A stretch of 49,327 nt of DNA from Clostridia bacterium. GTDB lineage: Bacteria; CBDUZB01; JAGLHV01. The stretch's first letter is position 1, and the number at the start of each line of letters is the position of its first letter. This document shows positions 40,018 through 49,327 of the stretch, in pieces. The translations under genes were made by a program, and so were the position numbers. The stretch covers positions 1 to 49,327 of the forward strand of contig DAOVVV010000020.1 of assembly GCA_030637025.1 (NCBI GenBank), written 5' to 3'. The notes beneath the pieces were generated by a model. The model ran no database searches, was not told the DNA's origin, and was given only the letters and a program-made list of their open reading frames with translations.

Positions 40018-42489
40018 ATGAAATTGAAAAAAGGGTTGAGTAGCATTTTGTTCTGTATTTGTTTTTTAGCTTTGGTGTCTCTTTTAGGTAAAGGGCTGAT
40101 TGGTTTTGTTTATGCGGAAAGTAATCAATCAAATCAGGTAAGAATTGATTGGAGCGAGTTTAAAAAACTATTAAAAATTGATGCCGACGAGATTAAACTG
40201 AGCTGGGATGAATTTAAAAGACTTATAGCTCAGACCGGAAGTGAAATAAAAGTGGAATATAACATCCAGAATGGTATGGTGGTCTTACAGCGTGAGCAAT
40301 TTAAAAAATTATTACAACAAATGAAACCGCCGTATACAAAGCCCTTGCAGCCTCCTGCTGATTATTTAATTACTAAAGCGGAATATTCCGGGATTATGGG
40401 AAAGAAAAGTACGACTTTTAAAGTTCGCTTCTTTTTAGAGATATTTAAAAAAGAAAGAAAAGCCTATCCCAAGATTCGTCTCCTGCCGCAGAAAGTAGCC
40501 TTAAAAGAAATTAAATTAAATGATAAACCGGCTCTGGTGATGAATGAAGGTGGTTGGTATGTGCTTACCACCCCTAAATCCGGACAGCATATAATTGATC
40601 TGGAATTTTCCGTTAAATCAGCTCTGGATAAGGGGCCTGATGTATTGAATCTTAATATTCCTCAAACTGCTATTACTTTGTTTAATCTGACTATACCGCT
40701 CAAAGAAGTTAAAGTAGAAGTTCCTCAGGCCAAGCAAATAACTATATCCAGGGTTGCCGCTCAGACCAAAGTTAAGGCGATACTTTCTACCACCAGTTAT
40801 GTCAATGTTAAGTTGCACCGGACCATTGTCGTAGAGAAAAAGAAAGGACCGGCTAAACTTTATGCGGAAACAATGAACCTGTTTTCTTTGGAAGATGATG
40901 CCTTACGGGTAAATACCCGGTTTAAATTGAATATTTTACAAAATACAATAGCTAAAGTTAAAGTATCTGTTCCCCATGGTTATAGTGTTCTTTATGTAAA
41001 AAATCAAAATTGGCAGGAAATTCGGGATTGGAGTACAAAAAAAGTAAAAGAAAAAGAAATTCTTACTGTGCCTTTTGAAAGTGAAAAAGAAGGAACGGTT
41101 GTTTTTAATGTAGTATCGGAGAAAATATTTACCGATGAGCAAAGTGAGCTTGAATTTAACGGGTTTGAGGTTTTGGATGCAATCAGGGAGACAGGTTATA
41201 TTGGGGCGGAAAAAAAGAGCACTGCTGAGGCGGAAATTGTTAAAGTAGATAATATCGATCGGGTTGATATTCAGGAATTACCTTATGATTTAATTAATAT
41301 GTCGGCAAAGCCTCTTATTTTTGGTTTTCGTTATTTAAGGCATCCTTTCCTTTTGTCTTTGAAAGTTATTAAACACGAAGAACTTCCTACGGTAAATACA
41401 GTAATTGATAATGCCAGCGTAATGTCGGTATTGTTAGAAGAAGGAAAGGTTATTACCAGGGTGGTTTATACGATGCGTAATACCTGGAAGCAGTTTCTCC
41501 AGTTAAAATTACCGGCGGAAGCGGAAATATGGAGCCTTTATGTTAACGGGAAAAGAGAACTTCCTTCCAAGACGAAAGAAGGGAAATTTATGATTCCTTT
41601 AATCCGTTCCAGAATAGAGGGGGAGAATATAACTTCTTTTGATGTGGAAATACTTTATTATCATAAAAATAAAAAATTTTGTATTGCCGGGTCAAAAAAA
41701 CTGCAATTTCCTATAGTAGACGTAGTAATGAGTAAAATGTTATGGTCTTGTTATTTTCCGATAGATTATAGCTTTCTTCATTTTGGCGGTGATGTAGAAA
41801 AAGAAAAACTTGCCAGTGGTATTCGTCCGCTGATAGGTAATAAGCGGGTGTTTACCTATAGATCGGTTAATGGTTATAACGAGGCATTGGAAGATTGGAA
41901 GAGGCAGGGGGGTAGACAACAGCGTAGTAGTAGCGGGAGACTTAAAAAAACACAGCAATTGTTACAAAGCGAATTCAGGATAAATAGCGATAATAACGGA
42001 TTTCTTAACCAACTGTCCCAGGAGATTAATTTTGCCGAAAATATTAAAAAAGAACAACAGCAGGGTGTTATTGCCCGGGGAGGGGGTGGTGTAGCCCTTT
42101 TAAAAATAGAAATGCCTACTTCCGGTCAAATTTACCGCTTTGCCAAAACCCTGATAGAAGGGGAGGAGCTATATTTAAGTTTTCAATATGTAAGAGGATG
42201 GGTGGGTATGGTTTTTAAATTTTTATTTCTTTTTCTTTTTGGTTATATCATTTATTTTATGCGTGTGGTGATTAGAAACAGATATATAAGAATTAAAAAT
42301 TGGTTTGCCTTGTATAAAGATTTCTGGGATAAACTTAAAACTCCTCAGGGAACACGAGTTTTACTTTGTATAGGAGCAGTGGCTTTTTTATTTATTTCGC
42401 GATTTCTTTTTGTGGTCTTTGTTTTGCTTTTTTTGGTTGCCTGGATAAAACCGGAGTGGATTTTCGGTAAAAAAGATCAAACTCCTTAA
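40018..42489 (+). CDS. Large exported beta-rich protein with C-terminal TM helices, function unknown (paralog 1)
   Basis: Signal peptide ending VYA, GGAGG RBS, C-terminal hydrophobic segments, end-to-end similarity with 42952-45894. Confidence 0.85.
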   Translation: MKLKKGLSSILFCICFLALVSLLGKGLIGFVYAESNQSNQVRIDWSEFKKLLKIDADEIKLSWDEFKRLIAQTGSEIKVEYNIQNGMVVLQREQFKKLLQQMKPPYTKPLQPPADYLITKAEYSGIMGKKSTTFKVRFFLEIFKKERKAYPKIRLLPQKVALKEIKLNDKPALVMNEGGWYVLTTPKSGQHIIDLEFSVKSALDKGPDVLNLNIPQTAITLFNLTIPLKEVKVEVPQAKQITISRVAAQTKVKAILSTTSYVNVKLHRTIVVEKKKGPAKLYAETMNLFSLEDDALRVNTRFKLNILQNTIAKVKVSVPHGYSVLYVKNQNWQEIRDWSTKKVKEKEILTVPFESEKEGTVVFNVVSEKIFTDEQSELEFNGFEVLDAIRETGYIGAEKKSTAEAEIVKVDNIDRVDIQELPYDLINMSAKPLIFGFRYLRHPFLLSLKVIKHEELPTVNTVIDNASVMSVLLEEGKVITRVVYTMRNTWKQFLQLKLPAEAEIWSLYVNGKRELPSKTKEGKFMIPLIRSRIEGENITSFDVEILYYHKNKKFCIAGSKKLQFPIVDVVMSKMLWSCYFPIDYSFLHFGGDVEKEKLASGIRPLIGNKRVFTYRSVNGYNEALEDWKRQGGRQQRSSSGRLKKTQQLLQSEFRINSDNNGFLNQLSQEINFAENIKKEQQQGVIARGGGGVALLKIEMPTSGQIYRFAKTLIEGEELYLSFQYVRGWVGMVFKFLFLFLFGYIIYFMRVVIRNRYIRIKNWFALYKDFWDKLKTPQGTRVLLCIGAVAFLFISRFLFVVFVLLFLVAWIKPEWIFGKKDQTP

Positions 42490-42951: not shown

Positions 42952-45894
42952 GTGAAACGAGAAAAAATCAAGAAATATATTCGTATAGGATGTAGTTGTT
43001 TGTGTTTAATAACTGTTTTGTTCAGTGTCGTATTGGCAGAAAACAATGAAGAAAAAAAATCAAATAGTATTCTTTTGGATTGGGAGGAATTTCGTAAGAT
43101 TTTAAAATTGGATAGTGATGAGGTTAAGCTTTCTTGGGATGAATATAGGAGTCTTTTGGCTCAAACCGGTTTTAAAGCAAAAGATAAATACCGAATAGAA
43201 GGTGGACAGGTTATTTTAAGTAGAAAACAATTTAAAACCTTGTTGGAACAAATGCAGCCGCCTAAAAAAAGTGAACTCATTCCTCCGGGTGATTATTTAA
43301 TAAGTAAAGGGGTTTATAAGGGAGTAGTGGGTAAAAAAAGCACTCAATTTGAAGCACGGCTGGATTTAGAAATTTTTAAAAAGCAAAAAAACACTTATTC
43401 TAAAATACCATTATTCAGAGAAGAATTAGCCATAGAAGATGTTCGGATTAATCAAAAACCTGCTTCCATTATTACTCAGAACGGATGGCATTATTTAAGT
43501 ACGGAAAAAACCGGAAAACAGCTGGTAGTAGTAAAATTTTCAGTTAAATCTTCTATGGATAAAGGAACTCCCGGATTAGGTTTTAATATTCCTTCTACAT
43601 CGATAACTAAGGTTGTTTTAAATATTCCTAAAAGAAATATAGAGGTAAATATTACCAATGCCCATGAAATAAAAATTACCCAAAAAGATAAGTACACTAA
43701 AGTAGAGGGGTATCTTATTCCTGCTTCGTATATGCATATTTCCTGGAAAAAGAAATTAGAGGAAAAATTCCGTGGTCCGGCAAAAATTTATGCTGAACTT
43801 TTTAATCTTCTTTCCATTGAAGCGGATGCCATCAGAGTGGTTTCACAGGTAAAGCTGAATATCGTTCAGAATAAAATTAGCGGAATAACTTTAGTAGTTC
43901 CTTCCGGTTATCAAATTTTGGAGGTAACCGGCCAGGGAAAGAATATGTGGAGCGTAAGAGAAGAAAAGGGAGAGCAATTTCTGGAGGTTCCTTTTGAATA
44001 TCCGGCTGAAGGTCAGAAGTATTTAACTATCAAGGCGGAAAAAATATTGCCGGAAGAAACAATGGTTGCTGATTTTACCGGATTTAAAGTGCTCAAGGTA
44101 AAAAGAGAATTTGGTTTTATTGCCGGTGAAATAAAAAGTGATGCCGAAGCCAAGGTACAGGAGTTTGAAGGTTTAGATAGAATTGATTTTGGGAAAATAC
44201 CGGCACAACTTAGCGGGCTTTCTTCCCGTCCCGTACTTTTTGCCTTTAAATATATTCGTCATCCCTATAATATTGTGGTTGATATTACTAAATACGAAAA
44301 AGAAGAGGCTTTGAGTGTTATTATCGATAAGGCAAATGGAATAACCCTTTTTAAAGAAGAGGGAAAACTGGTGCATTTATTAACCTTTTCTATGCGTAAC
44401 CTGTGGAATCAGTTTTTAAAGCTGGATTTACCGCAAGACGCCAGTATCTGGAGCGTATATGTAGACGGAAAAAGAGAGAAGGCATCTAAAGACAGCAGCG
44501 GTAAGATTTTAATTCCTTTAGTGCGTTCTCAAAGAGAAAACAGGGATAGCGGTTTAAGGCCTTTTAAGGTAGAGCTTATTTATACCCAGCCGGCTGGGAA
44601 ATTCTTTATTTTAGGCAGTAAAAAAAGTATTTTTCCGGCGACGGATGTGTTGATCAATAGTTTAGAATGGAATTTTTACCTGCCGGTAAATTATAAGTAT
44701 GTTTATTTTGGGGGAAATTTAGAAAAGGAAAAGATTATTAAACAGCGGAAGCCTTTATGGCGTACAATGTCTAAGACGGTCTTAGGGGGGATAGCAGAGA
44801 CTTCTGTTTCTGGGACGTATGCACCGTTAGAAAAGAAAAAGCTAAAGGAAATTCATAAATATGGCGAAAAGAGTAAGGATGAAAAAGAATTAACACTGCG
44901 AGAACAGAGAAAACCTGTATGTTCGGATAAATTAATCAGGTCTTTAGAGGGTAAAGAGGCCGAAGAAGAAGTCGGTGATTTTTATACTGATGATTCAAGA
45001 GAAGATATAGCAGGGGAATCTTTTTCCAGCCCGTCTTTGCAGATATCTGCATCTATGGAAAGGAGTAGGGATGTTTCTTTAGGATTAGCCGGATTGCTTT
45101 CGGTACGGATGAATATTCCCCTTTCTGGAAAAAATTATCTTTTTTCTAAAAAGATTGTAGAGCAAGAGGATCTTTTACATTTAAATTTAGTTTATGTTAA
45201 CGAATGGATTATTAACGGACTTATTATTATTCTTGCTTTAATATTTTTGTGTATTCTTCTTAAGAAAAGAAATATTTTTTTCAAGCCTTTTATTGCTTTA
45301 GCAAAAAGTCTGGCTAAAATTTTTCCCCGGGTAAAAAAATATGGGCAGCCTAAATGGTTACCCGTGGTTATTTTAGTTGTCCTGCTAATAACCAAACTTC
45401 TGGATAAATTATTTTATCTATATAATTATTTCCCCATGCTTCCTGTATTACTAATCCTTATTTTTGTTCTATCGTTAATAGGTTTGTTTAAAAAACAATT
45501 AATTACCGTTATAAAATTTTTATGCCGTCCATTAGTTTCTTTATTAATAATTTCCGCCTGGATTTTCTTTCTGATGGGTAGTCGTTTGTTTTTTGCCTAT
45601 TTTCCTTTGTCTATACTGCTTATCATCGGGTTTATTACATCAATAATAAGATTACTTATTGGTTTTTCCAGGGAGAGGAAAACTTATTCTAAATCTGCCT
45701 TATTAATAAGTTTTATATTCTTTATCCTTTGCATAGTTGTGCGTTCGTTTGTACCGTATTCTCCTTTGTCTAACTTATTTTTTATTGGATTTATAATATC
45801 AACAATATTTTTAATAATTAGTTTTTTTAGAAAAAGAAAAGCGATAAAAGAAGTAAAAGATAAAATAATAAATGAAGAAAGAGAAGAAAAATAA
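42952..45894 (+). CDS. Large exported beta-rich protein with multi-TM C-terminus (paralog 2)
   Basis: GTG start after AAGGAGG, signal peptide ending VLA. Shares DW.EF.K.LK.D.DE.KLSWDE...L.AQTG, PP.DYLI.K..Y.G, MRN.W.QFL.L.LP and YFGG with paralog 1. Confidence 0.85.
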   Translation: MKREKIKKYIRIGCSCLCLITVLFSVVLAENNEEKKSNSILLDWEEFRKILKLDSDEVKLSWDEYRSLLAQTGFKAKDKYRIEGGQVILSRKQFKTLLEQMQPPKKSELIPPGDYLISKGVYKGVVGKKSTQFEARLDLEIFKKQKNTYSKIPLFREELAIEDVRINQKPASIITQNGWHYLSTEKTGKQLVVVKFSVKSSMDKGTPGLGFNIPSTSITKVVLNIPKRNIEVNITNAHEIKITQKDKYTKVEGYLIPASYMHISWKKKLEEKFRGPAKIYAELFNLLSIEADAIRVVSQVKLNIVQNKISGITLVVPSGYQILEVTGQGKNMWSVREEKGEQFLEVPFEYPAEGQKYLTIKAEKILPEETMVADFTGFKVLKVKREFGFIAGEIKSDAEAKVQEFEGLDRIDFGKIPAQLSGLSSRPVLFAFKYIRHPYNIVVDITKYEKEEALSVIIDKANGITLFKEEGKLVHLLTFSMRNLWNQFLKLDLPQDASIWSVYVDGKREKASKDSSGKILIPLVRSQRENRDSGLRPFKVELIYTQPAGKFFILGSKKSIFPATDVLINSLEWNFYLPVNYKYVYFGGNLEKEKIIKQRKPLWRTMSKTVLGGIAETSVSGTYAPLEKKKLKEIHKYGEKSKDEKELTLREQRKPVCSDKLIRSLEGKEAEEEVGDFYTDDSREDIAGESFSSPSLQISASMERSRDVSLGLAGLLSVRMNIPLSGKNYLFSKKIVEQEDLLHLNLVYVNEWIINGLIIILALIFLCILLKKRNIFFKPFIALAKSLAKIFPRVKKYGQPKWLPVVILVVLLITKLLDKLFYLYNYFPMLPVLLILIFVLSLIGLFKKQLITVIKFLCRPLVSLLIISAWIFFLMGSRLFFAYFPLSILLIIGFITSIIRLLIGFSRERKTYSKSALLISFIFFILCIVVRSFVPYSPLSNLFFIGFIISTIFLIISFFRKRKAIKEVKDKIINEEREEK

Positions 45895-45895
45895 A

Positions 45896-48220
45896 ATGGA
45901 AAGAAAAATGTTAAAATTGCGATTTTTTTCTTTGATTGTGTTTTTTCTGTTTTGTGGGTATTCTGCTGGTTATAGTAAAACTCAGATTTCCGTAGAAGCT
46001 ATTAAAAACAATCGGGTTTCAGAAGTCGAAGAGGCAATAGGGAAAGGGGCAGATGTTAATGCAAGGGATTTTTACGGTCATACTGCATTAATAAGGGCGG
46101 CTGAATATGATTCTTTAGAGGCGGCTATGTTATTGATAGAAAAAGGGGCAGATATCAATGTAAAGAATACTTATGACCGTACACCATTAATGTGTGCAGC
46201 TATGAATAATTCTTTAAAAGTGGCCAGGTTATTGATAGAGAAGGGAGCAAAAGTTAATATAAGGAATAAAAATTACTATACAGCATTGTTGTTTGCAGTT
46301 AATAAAAATTATTTACAAGTAGCAAGGTTACTCATAGAAAAATGGGCAGATGTCAACTTAAAGTACTCCTCTAAAGAAACCGTATTGATAGTAGCAGCCA
46401 AGAAAAATTATTTAGAAATAGCACAATTACTGATAGAGGAAGGGGCAGATGTTAATACTAAAAACACAGATGGCAAAACAGCCTTGGATTGCATTGAAGA
46501 AAGAAAAGGTTATAACAAAATGAAAACTTTGCTTAAAAAACACGGAGGGACTAGTTTTTATAAAGTTTTTCAGGAAGGTATTAAAAACAATCAGGTTTCA
46601 GAAGTTAGAAAAGCAATAGAGAAGGGGGTTAATATTAATGTAAGGGATTTTTACGGCCATACTGCATTAATGAAAGCAGCCGGATATGATTCGTTACAAG
46701 TGGCAGAATTACTTATACAAGATGGGGTGAATGTTAATATAAAGGATTATTCTGGTTGGACGGCATTGTTTTTTGCTGCTAGTAAAAATTCCTTAAAAAT
46801 AGCAACATTACTAATAGTCAACGGAGTGGATGTTAATGTAAAAAGTCGTTATAGCAAAACAACTTTGATGTTTGTCGATGAAAATAATTCTTTGGAAGTA
46901 GCAAAGTCACCAGAGAAAGGGGTAAATATCAACACGGAAAAATGGAGAAGTCAGACAACAGCATTGATGGTGGCAGCCAAGAAAAATTCTTTGGAAGTAG
47001 CAAAGTTACTGATAGAAAAAGGAGCAAATTTAGAGGTAAAAGACAAAGGTAACTGGACAGCATTAATGTGGGCAGCTAAAAATAATTCTTTAAAAATAGC
47101 AAAATTACTCATTGAAAAAGGTGTAAATATTAATGCACGAGACAACTATAGTAAAACAGCTTTAGACTATGTTGAAATGGGAAAGGATTATAACAAAATG
47201 AGAACTTTGCTTAAAAAACACGGAGGAACTAGTTTTGCTATTTTTTATGAAGCTATTAAAAACAATCGAGTTTCAGAGGTTAAAGTTGCAATAGATAAAG
47301 GAACAACGGTTACTTCCACAGCATTAATTATAGTGGCGGAAAATAATTCTTTGAAAGCAGCAAAGTTGCTAATAGGGAAAAAAACAGATATTAATGCAAA
47401 AGATAATGGTGGTCGGACAGCATTAATAGTGGCAGCTGAAAACAACTCTTTAGAGGTAGCAGAATTACTGATACAAAATGGGGCTAATGTTAATATAAGG
47501 GATAATTTTTACCAGACAGCATTAATGAAAGCGGCTGAAAATAATTCTTTAAAAGTAGCAGAATTACTGATACAAAATGGGGCGAATGTTAATACAGGTA
47601 ATGCTATCCAAACAGCATTAACAAAAGCGGCTGAAAATAATTCTTTAAAAGTAGCAGAATTACTCATAAAGAAAGGAGCGAATGTTAATATGATGAGTAA
47701 TGGGGAGGGTTCTTCTGGTTGGACAGCATTAATGAGAGCAGCTATAAATAATTCTTTAGAAGTAGCAAAATTACTCATAGAGAAAGGAGCGGATGTTAAT
47801 GCAGAAAATTGTGAGAAGAAAACAGTGCTAATGTTTGCAGCTGACAATAATTCTTTAAAAGTAGCAAAATTGCTAATAGCAAAAGGAGCGGATATTAATG
47901 CAGTAAATTATGATGAATATTGTGAAGGAAGTTTGGAGGGCAAAACAGCGTTAATGTTTGCTGCTGACAAAAATTCCTTAAAAGTAGCAAAATTACTAAT
48001 AGCGAAAGGAGCGGATATTAATGCAGTAAGTGAGAGGGGAAAAACAGTATTAATGTTTGCTGCTGAGAAAAACTCCTTAAAAGTAGCAAAATTATTACTA
48101 AAGAAAGGTGCAAATGTCAATACATTGGATATGGGTTATCGTAAGACAGCATTAAAATATGCAGAAGTTGAAAAACATTCTAAAATGATAACTTTACTTA
48201 AAAAATACGGAGCAAAATAA
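45896..48220 (+). CDS. Secreted ankyrin-repeat protein
   Basis: Roughly 20 TAL..AA..NSL.VA.LLI.KGA.VN units and an N-terminal signal peptide. Start is 45872, 45896 or 45908. Confidence 0.95.
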   Translation: MERKMLKLRFFSLIVFFLFCGYSAGYSKTQISVEAIKNNRVSEVEEAIGKGADVNARDFYGHTALIRAAEYDSLEAAMLLIEKGADINVKNTYDRTPLMCAAMNNSLKVARLLIEKGAKVNIRNKNYYTALLFAVNKNYLQVARLLIEKWADVNLKYSSKETVLIVAAKKNYLEIAQLLIEEGADVNTKNTDGKTALDCIEERKGYNKMKTLLKKHGGTSFYKVFQEGIKNNQVSEVRKAIEKGVNINVRDFYGHTALMKAAGYDSLQVAELLIQDGVNVNIKDYSGWTALFFAASKNSLKIATLLIVNGVDVNVKSRYSKTTLMFVDENNSLEVAKSPEKGVNINTEKWRSQTTALMVAAKKNSLEVAKLLIEKGANLEVKDKGNWTALMWAAKNNSLKIAKLLIEKGVNINARDNYSKTALDYVEMGKDYNKMRTLLKKHGGTSFAIFYEAIKNNRVSEVKVAIDKGTTVTSTALIIVAENNSLKAAKLLIGKKTDINAKDNGGRTALIVAAENNSLEVAELLIQNGANVNIRDNFYQTALMKAAENNSLKVAELLIQNGANVNTGNAIQTALTKAAENNSLKVAELLIKKGANVNMMSNGEGSSGWTALMRAAINNSLEVAKLLIEKGADVNAENCEKKTVLMFAADNNSLKVAKLLIAKGADINAVNYDEYCEGSLEGKTALMFAADKNSLKVAKLLIAKGADINAVSERGKTVLMFAAEKNSLKVAKLLLKKGANVNTLDMGYRKTALKYAEVEKHSKMITLLKKYGAK

Positions 48221-48258
48221 TTTTAGATTTTATTATGATTTCACAAATTTTTATTAAA

Positions 48259-48275
48259 TGGTGGAGGTGGCGGGA
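48259..48275 (-). ncRNA. ssrA: 3' terminal exon fragment of tmRNA
   Basis: Minus strand TCCCGCCACCTCCACCA gives the T-stem 3' strand, an acceptor strand with U at the G3.U alanyl position, discriminator A and CCA. The rest of the gene is not in the window. Confidence 0.75.
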
Positions 48276-48363
48276 CACATATTCTACTTGTTTCCAAATA
48301 GTGTGGACTATTTCTTCATCCCAGTCTGCCTAAGGCAGATTAAGGGAGACCGGCGTATTATAG
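48276..48363 (-). ncRNA. 3' half of a group I intron (P3'-P8-J8/7-P7'-P9.0-P9-omegaG)
   Basis: Minus strand: CTATAATACGCCGG, TCTCCC..GGGATGA (P8), AGAAATAGTCC (S element), CTATTTG-GAAA-CAAGTAG (P9 with GNRA loop), and ACA/TGT (P9.0) before a terminal G abutting the exon. Confidence 0.8.
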
Positions 48364-48578
48364 AAAGCATAAATCTATTGTTGTTTAAACGATATTATCT
48401 TCCATTCCCTTCGATTTGAAAGGGCTATTAATTCCTCAAGATTGCCTTTCCACTTCCGGTAGAACAACCAATCTCTTGACGATATTTTTATGAAAATATA
48501 TTTTTTAAAAAGAGTTTAAAAGAAGGACAATTTCCTGCGATTAAATAATCTAAAAGATTATTTCTAACCTGTTTTTTC

Positions 48579-48633
48579 TTGACATAAGTTACCAGATGTT
48601 ATATTATTATTATAGATTCATCTGGTAACTTAT
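48579..48633 (+). promoter_or_regulatory. sigma70 promoter overlapped by a 15-bp perfect inverted repeat operator
   Basis: TTGACA (48579)-N17-TATTAT (48602). ATAAGTTACCAGATG (48584-48598) pairs with CATCTGGTAACTTAT (48619-48633). Confidence 0.8.
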
Positions 48634-48721
48634 ATCGACAGTTGTTGGGATATTATTTTTTTTGGGTTACCAGTGGAATTGTATATGTTGTTGTTTTCTA
48701 TAGTAACTATTGGGGATTCAT

Positions 48722-49024
48722 ATGGAAATATTAAATAGTGTTCTTAAAGAAGAACTAAATCGGTTAAAAAAACTGAATGGACAGTATCTCAAACAAATAT
48801 CTAATCTTCCAAGAGGGAGTTTAATAAGAAAAAAAATAAAAGGTCATATATATTATTATCTCAGCTATTGGCACCAAAATAAAAGCGCTTTTAAATATGT
48901 AGGTAAATTATCTATAAAAGAACGTGAAAACCTGTTAGACAAAATAGATGAACGGAAAAAATATGAAAAGCTTAACAGACGAGTTAAAAAAGACATTAAA
49001 AAGCTTGAAAAAATGGTAAAATGA
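48722..49024 (+). CDS. Small basic putative antitoxin/DNA-binding protein (LP.GSL..K.I.G..YYYL..KYVG type)
   Basis: Motif seen in small genes paired with GSU2403-type nucleotidyltransferases. ATGA coupling to the next gene. ATG at 48722 is preferred over TTG at 48710. Confidence 0.65.
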   Translation: MEILNSVLKEELNRLKKLNGQYLKQISNLPRGSLIRKKIKGHIYYYLSYWHQNKSAFKYVGKLSIKERENLLDKIDERKKYEKLNRRVKKDIKKLEKMVK

Positions 49025-49327
49025 CAAAACAAAATAATTTATTTTTTGCTACTCTTAAAGCCCTGCATAAGTCAGGTGACAATCACGCTTCCTGAACCTG
49101 CTGCTTATGTACTTCATAAATTCATAATACAGGAAAAACGAAAAAATAAGGAAAAGCAAAAGAGAGATTTATCAGCTGCAAAAAAGATAGGGGAGTTTTT
49201 ATTACGAAATAAGACTCAACGGAAAAAGCTTTTAGAAATATTTTTTTCGTTGCCTAAAAAATGGCAAGCAAAAATAATAAGAAATGTAAAGGCTAATTCT
49301 CAGCCGATTTTTGATTTTTTGTCAAAA
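49021..49327 (+). pseudogene. GSU2403-like nucleotidyltransferase-fold gene with deleted core and frameshift
   Basis: MTKQNNLFFATLKALHKSG stops at 49093. Another frame from 49076 reads VTITLPEPAAYVLHKFII..KR....K.KRD, the family C-terminal motif. The GS/DxD core is absent. Confidence 0.65.

Follow-up and report, generated by a model that had tools for sequence, protein, structure and literature searches.

Near its end, the window, which is the whole 49,327-nucleotide stretch of DNA analysed here and comprises all of contig C43 of the genome G000, carries the 3′ part of a group I intron joined to the 3′ end of a tmRNA gene (ssrA). This piece of intron and exon is very probably a non-functional, displaced relic, left behind when an intron-form ssrA was converted into a gene of the standard form. 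G000 is a metagenome bin of 77 contigs that is 97.8% complete, and the phylum-level set for its lineage consists of four genomes, all of one genus, the other three being designated G001, G002 and G003. The initial annotation had read the feature as a group I intron in the T-loop of tmRNA. With regard to descent this reading stands, since about 200 nt of the window piece are 82–83% identical to the intact ssrA introns of G002 and G003 (BLAST, E 1e-61 to 1e-63), but the ssrA of G000 itself has no intron. The same annotation had named a full ssrA with no trace of an intron as the observation that would count against it, and the only full ssrA in G000 is of this kind.

The tmRNA 3′ end, TCCCGCCACCTCCACCA, runs from 48275 to 48259 on the minus strand. 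Its 17-nt exon consists of the last T-loop base, the 3′ strand of the T stem, the 3′ strand of the acceptor stem and CCA. Inspection of the minus strand shows that GCGGGTTCGA is absent directly before this end at 48275, so that the early observation of a tmRNA-type 3′ end without its expected upstream part is borne out. The same is true of the group I 3′ domain and of the palindrome in P8, which is AGTCTGCCTAAGGCAGATT. J8/7 with the 3′ strand of P7, P8, the GAAA-capped P9 and the terminal G before the 3′ exon are all present in the window, and GAUGAAGAAAUAGUCC, which covers J8/7 and the P7 3′ strand, agrees with the RF00028 consensus in the covariance-model alignment. Helices are named here according to alignment A1 and to Rfam's alignment of the G003 intron, which is intact, and the coordinates of all features are collected in Table 1.

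Table 1. Features of the window (contig C43 of G000), followed by the two complete intron-form genes of related genomes
Feature	Position	Strand	Remarks
geneF, membrane-protein gene	44314–45684	+	No Pfam family; 66% identical to a 473-aa protein of G003
Ankyrin-repeat protein gene, 782 aa	45872–48220	+	Ankyrin repeats over nearly its whole length (Ank_2, 527 bits); hydrophobic N-terminus; between geneF and the relic
26-nt direct repeat, copy B	48250–48275	-	17-nt tmRNA 3′ exon and 9-nt trailer TTTAATAAA
Well-preserved 3′ part of the intron relic	48276–48370	-	From the alignment with the intact G003 intron
Omega-G (terminal G of the intron)	48276	-	Directly before TCCCGCC
P9, CTATTTG-GAAA-CAAGTAG	48301 to 48284	-	18 nt, GAAA-capped
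AGAAATAGTCC, J8/7 and P7 3′ strand	48315 to 48305	-	
J8/7	48311–48318	-	
P7 3′ strand, AGTCC	48305–48309	-	
P8, long	48347 to 48319	-	Contains the palindrome AGTCTGCCTAAGGCAGATT, at 48323–48341 on the plus strand
P3′ (3′ strand of P3), GCCGGT	48349–48354	-	
Decayed 5′ part of the intron relic	48371–48480	-	From alignment A1
P7.1 hairpin	48407–48424	-	
P4, TCAAG with CTTGA	48475–48479 with 48436–48440	-	TCAAG assigned by eye, upstream of the BLAST homology
AT-rich control region of the cassette	48481–48709		Conserved with G001
Inverted repeat in the control region	Arms 48582–48598 and 48619–48635		
Promoter-like site, TTGACA-17-TATTAT	48579–48607	+	Consensus scan 11/12, strong match; a match is not evidence of function
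Weaker promoter-like site, toward the relic	48638–48609	-	Consensus scan 10/12; a match is not evidence of function
104-aa ORF, first cassette gene	48710–49024	+	No family; G001 copy of the same length with few differences
NTP_transf_8 (PF12281) nucleotidyltransferase pseudogene	49021–49327	+	Continues into C72
Complete intron-form ssrA of G003	L010 83–704		Intron of 277 nt
Complete intron-form ssrA of G002	L011 2121–1500	-	Intron of 276 nt

In a permissive scan of 47800–49327, RF00028 matches positions 48284–48476 on the minus strand with 31.6 bits (E 8e-06), and in this match the P4–P6 block is collapsed to 7 nt against 89 model positions. Because 31.6 bits does not reach the RF00028 gathering score of 50 bits, the family goes unlisted when the window is scanned with Rfam at gathering thresholds, a scan which lists no family at all. 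ARAGORN reports neither a tRNA nor a tmRNA in the window. The Rfam check proposed in the initial annotation therefore has a divided outcome, in that the tmRNA is found whole in G000 (220.1 bits) while the group I match, for all its E value, stays below threshold. The feature in the window is real and more than a chance resemblance, but it is sub-threshold and oddly built.

The single above-threshold tmRNA in G000 is located on another contig, C72, at 240–592 of the minus strand, where it matches RF00023 over model positions 1–374. ARAGORN calls the tmRNA at the same position, with the tag ADQKLALAA. This gene is uninterrupted (...GCGGGTTCGATTCCCGCCACCTCCACCA), with smpB before it and a hairpin with a T-run, the terminator, after it. 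The splice junction ...GGGTTCGAT|TCCCGCC that had been predicted is correct for G002 and G003, in which the intron splits the T-loop at this point, but not for G000. The last 141 nt of C43 are exactly the first 141 nt of C72. The 17-mer of the tmRNA 3′ exon has exactly two copies in G000, one on each of these contigs, and their identity extends over 26 nt (TCCCGCCACCTCCACCATTTAATAAA). The intact ssrA on C72 ends with copy A, so that a 26-nt direct repeat flanks an insert and the intact 220-bit tmRNA is completed by the C72 copy.

The join between C43 and C72 crosses a contig break in the metagenome assembly, and it is matched by contigs from separately assembled sequencing runs. The Logan contig of run X1, 1819 nt long and of even depth, spans 47900–49327 with 0 differences, and holds the ankyrin gene, the relic, the cassette and exon 1 on one contig. 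It continues for 89 nt past the end of the window to repeat copy A and then into ATCGAACCCGC, which is complementary to the exon-1 T arm. The contigs of runs X2–X4 also bridge the relic with 0 differences. In each of the four runs, assembled separately, contigs bridge 47985–48486 or more without a difference. The runs that contain the window sequence are labelled as cold seep metagenomes, with no RNA run listed among the 15, and X1–X4 may include the source sample. Read in the sense of the tmRNA, the locus consists of smpB, the complete ssrA with exon-2 copy A, the terminator hairpin, about 65 nt duplicated from the 3′ end of geneF, a cassette of two genes in the opposite orientation, the 5′-truncated intron, exon-2 copy B and the ankyrin-repeat gene. 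The intron tail and the original 3′ exon thus sit 1.17 kb downstream of the standard ssrA. G001 has ssrA, cassette and relic in matching order on one contig. An assembly artefact, in which a strain with an intact intron and a strain with the cassette were fused into a chimeric contig, is very improbable in view of this arrangement. The 77-contig metagenome bin, the contig break with its k-mer-sized 141-nt overlap and the strain variants within the cassette are what such a fusion might leave, but the separately assembled contigs of four runs bridge the relic with 0 differences, and G001, a different species, shows the same junction of cassette and relic.

Two other members of the genus, G002 and G003, keep an intact intron at exactly this T-loop site, and G001 has the cassette and a shorter relic. 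In both intron-form genes (L010 and L011), the RF00023 match ends at GGGUUCGAUUC and the RF00028 match begins there, with 48.9 and 49.9 bits, respectively, also just below the gathering score. In G003, the 5′ exon ends in ...GGGTTCGAT, and the intron (L010 411–687) starts with TCTAAAGAGTCGAC and ends in ...GTATGTG before TCCCGCC. Its P1 is formed by UCGAU and GUCGA with a U·G pair, and its last base is G. Removing the intron in G002 or G003 rebuilds the 7-nt T-loop and the T stem (GCGGGTTCGAT + TCCCGC). The Rfam alignment of the G003 intron passes through P1, P2, P3, P4, P5, P6 and the 5′ strand of P7 (GCAGAGACU), and onward through a long insert (P7.1/P7.2), P3′, P8, J8/7 and P9. The folding energy of the intron is -99 kcal/mol (z -6.73), a value reached by 0 of 200 shuffles, and the minimum-energy fold reproduces P1, P2, P3, P4, P5, P6, P7.1, P7.2, P8 and P9. 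ARAGORN reports no tmRNA at L010 or L011 and misses both intron-form genes, and in G002 as in G003 both the gene and its intron would probably escape standard annotation. The G001 locus (L012) contains a standard ssrA, the terminator, the cassette with an intact 231-aa gene, the shorter intron piece, another ORF and geneF. The T stem of the G001 tmRNA is GCGAG...CTCGC (L012 189–205) and that of G000, G002 and G003 is GCGGG...CCCGC, a compensatory pair change; a contig of run X4 has GCGGG...CTCGC, with a G·U pair, which is a possible intermediate.

The relic in G000 amounts to two-thirds of a group I intron, counted from the 3′ end, together with the 3′ exon. Its homology to the intact intron begins at 48455 in BLAST and from about P4 onward in alignment A1, in which P1, P2 and the 5′ strand of P3 are absent and most of P7.2 is lost. 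In the decayed 5′ part, P5/P5a is altered, P6 is weakened and P7.2 is reduced to a stub. The 5′ strand of P3 was lost with the truncation, and that of P7 (GCAGAGACTTCC in G003) is removed by a 12-nt deletion between 48421 and 48420, so that P3 and P7 each have their 3′ strand alone and the guanosine-binding site, which is P7, is incomplete. Upstream of 48480 there is neither a 5′ exon nor a guide sequence with which P1 could be made. The fold of the relic is unremarkable (z -1.01), 32 of 200 shuffles being equally good. Having no 5′ splice site, guide sequence or guanosine-binding helix, the relic cannot splice, as follows from the established mechanism of group I introns. When the intact G003 intron is compared with the whole of G000 by BLAST, only the relic and the exon flanks are found, other hits having an E value of 0.59. 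The absence of any other copy of the 5′ part from the 97.8%-complete genome rules out a split intron whose 5′ half would be encoded at another locus. Capture from the intron of another phylum is likewise ruled out, as among the 12 introns compared the 5′ part of the relic matched only the two of its own genus, with 74–75% identity over 80 nt.

The two parts of the relic differ sharply in their state of preservation. Over its 95 nt, the 3′ part differs from the G003 intron at 1 position and from the G002 intron by 2 mismatches and 1 gap, whereas the 5′ part, compared with G003 over 110 nt, shows 76 matches, 33 mismatches and 24 gap columns. For comparison, exon 1 has 3 differences in 336 nt between G000 and G003, and the intact introns of G002 and G003 differ by 8 mismatches and 1 gap in 277 nt, while between G000 and G002 the identity is 80.6% in smpB DNA and 83% in the ankyrin flank. 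Since long-dead sequence should not stay so well kept, the 95-nt part must be either young or still constrained. The relic of G001 is damaged in a different manner. It kept the P7 5′ strand that G000 lost, and it lost P7.1 and everything from P3′ on. Decay of the relic is thus independent in the two species. Both relics share a common 5′ junction and a common P7.2 deletion, which indicates that the rearranged allele is old.

The insert between the repeats is 1.14 kb long and contains the terminator, some 65 nt similar to the geneF 3′ end, a deleted nucleotidyltransferase gene and the 104-aa ORF. The nucleotidyltransferase pseudogene has an internal deletion of about 0.4 kb near 49077/49078, and its reading frames are broken in G000; the intact gene of G001, which encodes 231 aa, matches PF12281 with 70.4 bits. 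The G001 insert is larger, with an additional 188-aa ORF that belongs to no family. The G001 copy of the 104-aa ORF has no match in Pfam, NCBIfam or PADLOC, and none of the three G001 cassette proteins has a match in NCBIfam. The sole PADLOC match, of the 188-aa ORF to HerA, scores 14.9 bits and was disregarded. No integrase family is matched in Pfam by the ORFs of the G000 or the G001 insert. To judge from the promoter-like site on the minus strand, the relic might conceivably be transcribed. The Logan contigs of X2–X4 diverge from the window at 49077/49078 and carry four single-base variants between 48985 and 49137, which suggests co-occurring strains with an undeleted nucleotidyltransferase gene. 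Such strain variation in the cassette probably explains the contig break at the end of the window.

Members of the genus differ in the DNA that follows ssrA, as the ankyrin gene indicates, which has a similar counterpart in the same place in G002 and none in G003 or G001. geneF adjoins ssrA in G003 and G001, while in the window the ankyrin gene separates geneF from the relic. The C-terminal half of the geneF protein is very hydrophobic, and a weaker, paralogous match (47%) is located 3 kb upstream at 41395–41832 on the plus strand. About 65 nt of the 3′ end of geneF are duplicated on C72, beside ssrA copy A. Logan contigs show joints of 85 and 123 nt that go back within the ankyrin gene, between 47900 and 48026, and the number of ankyrin repeats in the assembly may be uncertain, the repeat units being near-identical.

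The arrangement is best understood as the outcome of recombination at the T arm. Inserted DNA with a spare, intronless gene end has joined exon 1 seamlessly at the T-loop, so that ribosome rescue no longer needs splicing, and the original intron tail and 3′ exon have been pushed 1.17 kb downstream. The incoming DNA would have carried a truncated intron, exon 2, the terminator, the geneF end and the cassette. Its insertion was probably by homologous, Campbell-type recombination or by homology-anchored illegitimate recombination, rather than by a site-specific integrase. This mode is favoured because the duplicate extends into the terminator and geneF, an integrase is absent and the relic starts inside the intron. 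After this old rearrangement, shared by the two species, G000 and G001 would have lost different parts. More recently, the incoming, already-rearranged allele may have recombined with a resident intron that was intact and until then functional. The sharp change near 48370 suggests such a recent recombination, with continued selection the less likely cause. This history is drawn from four genomes.

Among the alternatives to a displaced relic, a genomic island inserted by a tyrosine integrase at the ssrA T-loop, with the 26-nt repeats as attL and attR and later shrinkage to 1.14 kb, deserves the most consideration and is nevertheless unlikely. In its favour are the foreign cargo between direct repeats of a gene 3′ end, the restoration of the gene on one side, and the description of tmRNA genes as frequent island sites in PMC11915505. 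However, neither the G000 nor the G001 insert has an integrase, and at copy A the duplication does not stop with the gene but takes in the terminator and some 65 nt of the geneF end, which is typical of homologous recombination. Furthermore, the repeat starts exactly at the boundary between intron and exon, so that the usual 7-nt T-loop crossover site would be missing in an intron-form target. It is more doubtful still that the 95-nt 3′ domain and exon-2 copy B are under selection, whether as an RNA made from the divergent promoter or as a retained recombination target. The single difference in 95 nt, against a divergence of about 17–20% in the neighbouring flank and smpB DNA, and the promoter-like site at 48638–48609 on the minus strand would fit such a role. 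Yet G001 has deleted the whole 3′ part, the fold of the relic does not stand out from its shuffles, and G000 contains no partner 5′ half. In addition, tmRNA and intron sequences are 97–99% conserved across the genus, so that a recently orphaned piece would look identical in any case. If the 3′ domain were under selection, its RNA would carry the 3′ strand of the tmRNA acceptor and T stem, or the recombination target would let intron-form and standard-form ssrA alleles interconvert, and the near-identity to the living intron would not simply reflect youth.

The least credible of the readings, and scarcely to be entertained, is that an active group I intron still interrupts the G000 tmRNA in its T-loop, possibly a very long one that starts after exon 1 on C72 and ends with the omega-G, at 48276. 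It can appeal to exon 1 ending in U, to the G at the end of the relic directly before TCCCGCC, and to the congeners, which have exactly such an intron. Against it, exon 1 already has its own exon 2, CCA and terminator hairpin, and it is not followed by a guide sequence of the GAGTCGAC type seen in the congeners. P3 and P7 have lost their 5′ strands, the RF00028 match is sub-threshold with a collapsed P4–P6 block, and the cassette genes lie on the opposite strand.

Introns of this kind occur well beyond the genus. A pattern combining J8/7 and the tmRNA 3′ exon, searched on contigs of one genome per species, finds 13 genome loci, six in Neobacillus/Bacillus, two each in Omnitrophota and Elusimicrobiota, one in Poribacteria and the two of the congeners. 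Twelve of the 13 have GGGTTCGAT 253–654 nt upstream, followed by a GTCG guide, and are therefore intact forms; at the remaining one, L025, an exon-1 T arm is lacking within 1500 nt and there seems to be an ORF. Of the 12 intact introns, the ten below 320 nt in length, which come from this genus, Omnitrophota, Poribacteria and Neobacillus/Bacillus, were aligned, and the two long ones were excluded. Pairing was counted in the six helices that are in register, P1, P2, P3, P4, P5 and P7, and P8 and P9 were left out of the count because the Bacillus-type rows are one base out of register there. Pairs are formed in 96.7% of 300 cells, and 13 of the 30 pairs vary on both sides. None of 500 shuffles matches the observed two-sided changes, and slid partners give 27–41%. 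A scan of metagenomes with a 27-mer of the relic finds 0 loci, and with a degenerate pattern 15 loci. Of these, 11 are intact, with exon 1 and a guide-type start 260–657 nt upstream, one (L047) is doubtful, and three have upstream sequence of only 284–517 nt. No second clear relic is found among the 28 related loci from genomes and metagenomes. The introns at L022 and L028, and at the metagenome loci L040–L043, L045–L046, L048 and L050–L051, are about 640–657 nt long rather than about 260–280 nt. The starts and ends of the long introns resemble those of the short ones, so that one peripheral element would contain a conserved insert of about 380 nt.

The first group I intron in a tmRNA T-loop was reportedly that of Clostridium botulinum. 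The rarity that the initial annotation ascribed to such introns is an outdated view, since 883 unique intron-form tmRNA sequences from 21 phyla are described in PMC11915505, which gives T-loop position 7 as the main site, rules for a U at -1 and for the omega-G, and a mean length of 293 nt. The family found here is this known intron form of ssrA. As in PMC11915505, the congener introns are inserted after the sixth T-loop base (GGGTTCGAT|...G|TCCCGCC), a site that, judged from the description there, would be its ‘position 7’. The U at -1 is paired with G in P1, the intron ends in G, extra hairpins of the IA type are present between P7 and P3′ (the P7.1 region), and the length of 277 nt is close to that mean. 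The congener introns also share a conserved core with those of Neobacillus/Bacillus, Omnitrophota, Elusimicrobiota and Poribacteria. In one supplementary file of PMC11915505, whose database may still include both records, the accession prefixes of G003 and G002 do not occur. Unlike the intron-form genes, the intron in the window lies outside the gene and is truncated, 1.17 kb downstream of a standard-form ssrA.

The locus also resembles the tRNA and tmRNA 3′ fragments displaced by genomic islands (Islander/TIGER), in which an incoming 3′ end replaces the old one and the old end is left as a direct repeat, and the cargo here, too, includes an accessory two-gene module. It differs from them in having no integrase and an insert of only 1.14 kb, and in a duplication that reaches the terminator and the neighbouring gene. 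A further difference is that the displaced fragment includes a piece of intron, so that the working gene lost its intron in the same event. A full-text search outside the subscription journals, with papers judged by title and beginning of the abstract, listed no paper on an intron remnant attached to a displaced tmRNA gene fragment.

The relic does not represent a new kind of system, and what is known of tmRNA introns is unchanged by it. For annotation it is a trap, in that a tmRNA 3′ end beside a good group I 3′ domain mimics an intron-form ssrA, while the real gene is elsewhere and intact. Within one genus, it documents intron turnover, two genomes having the canonical T-loop intron and two having the standard gene with an intron fossil. 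It also points to one route by which a tmRNA intron is lost, the recombination at the T arm of DNA that carries a spare intronless gene end. If the mosaic of an old 5′ part and a young 3′ part is upheld, such alleles would spread between related species by recombination.
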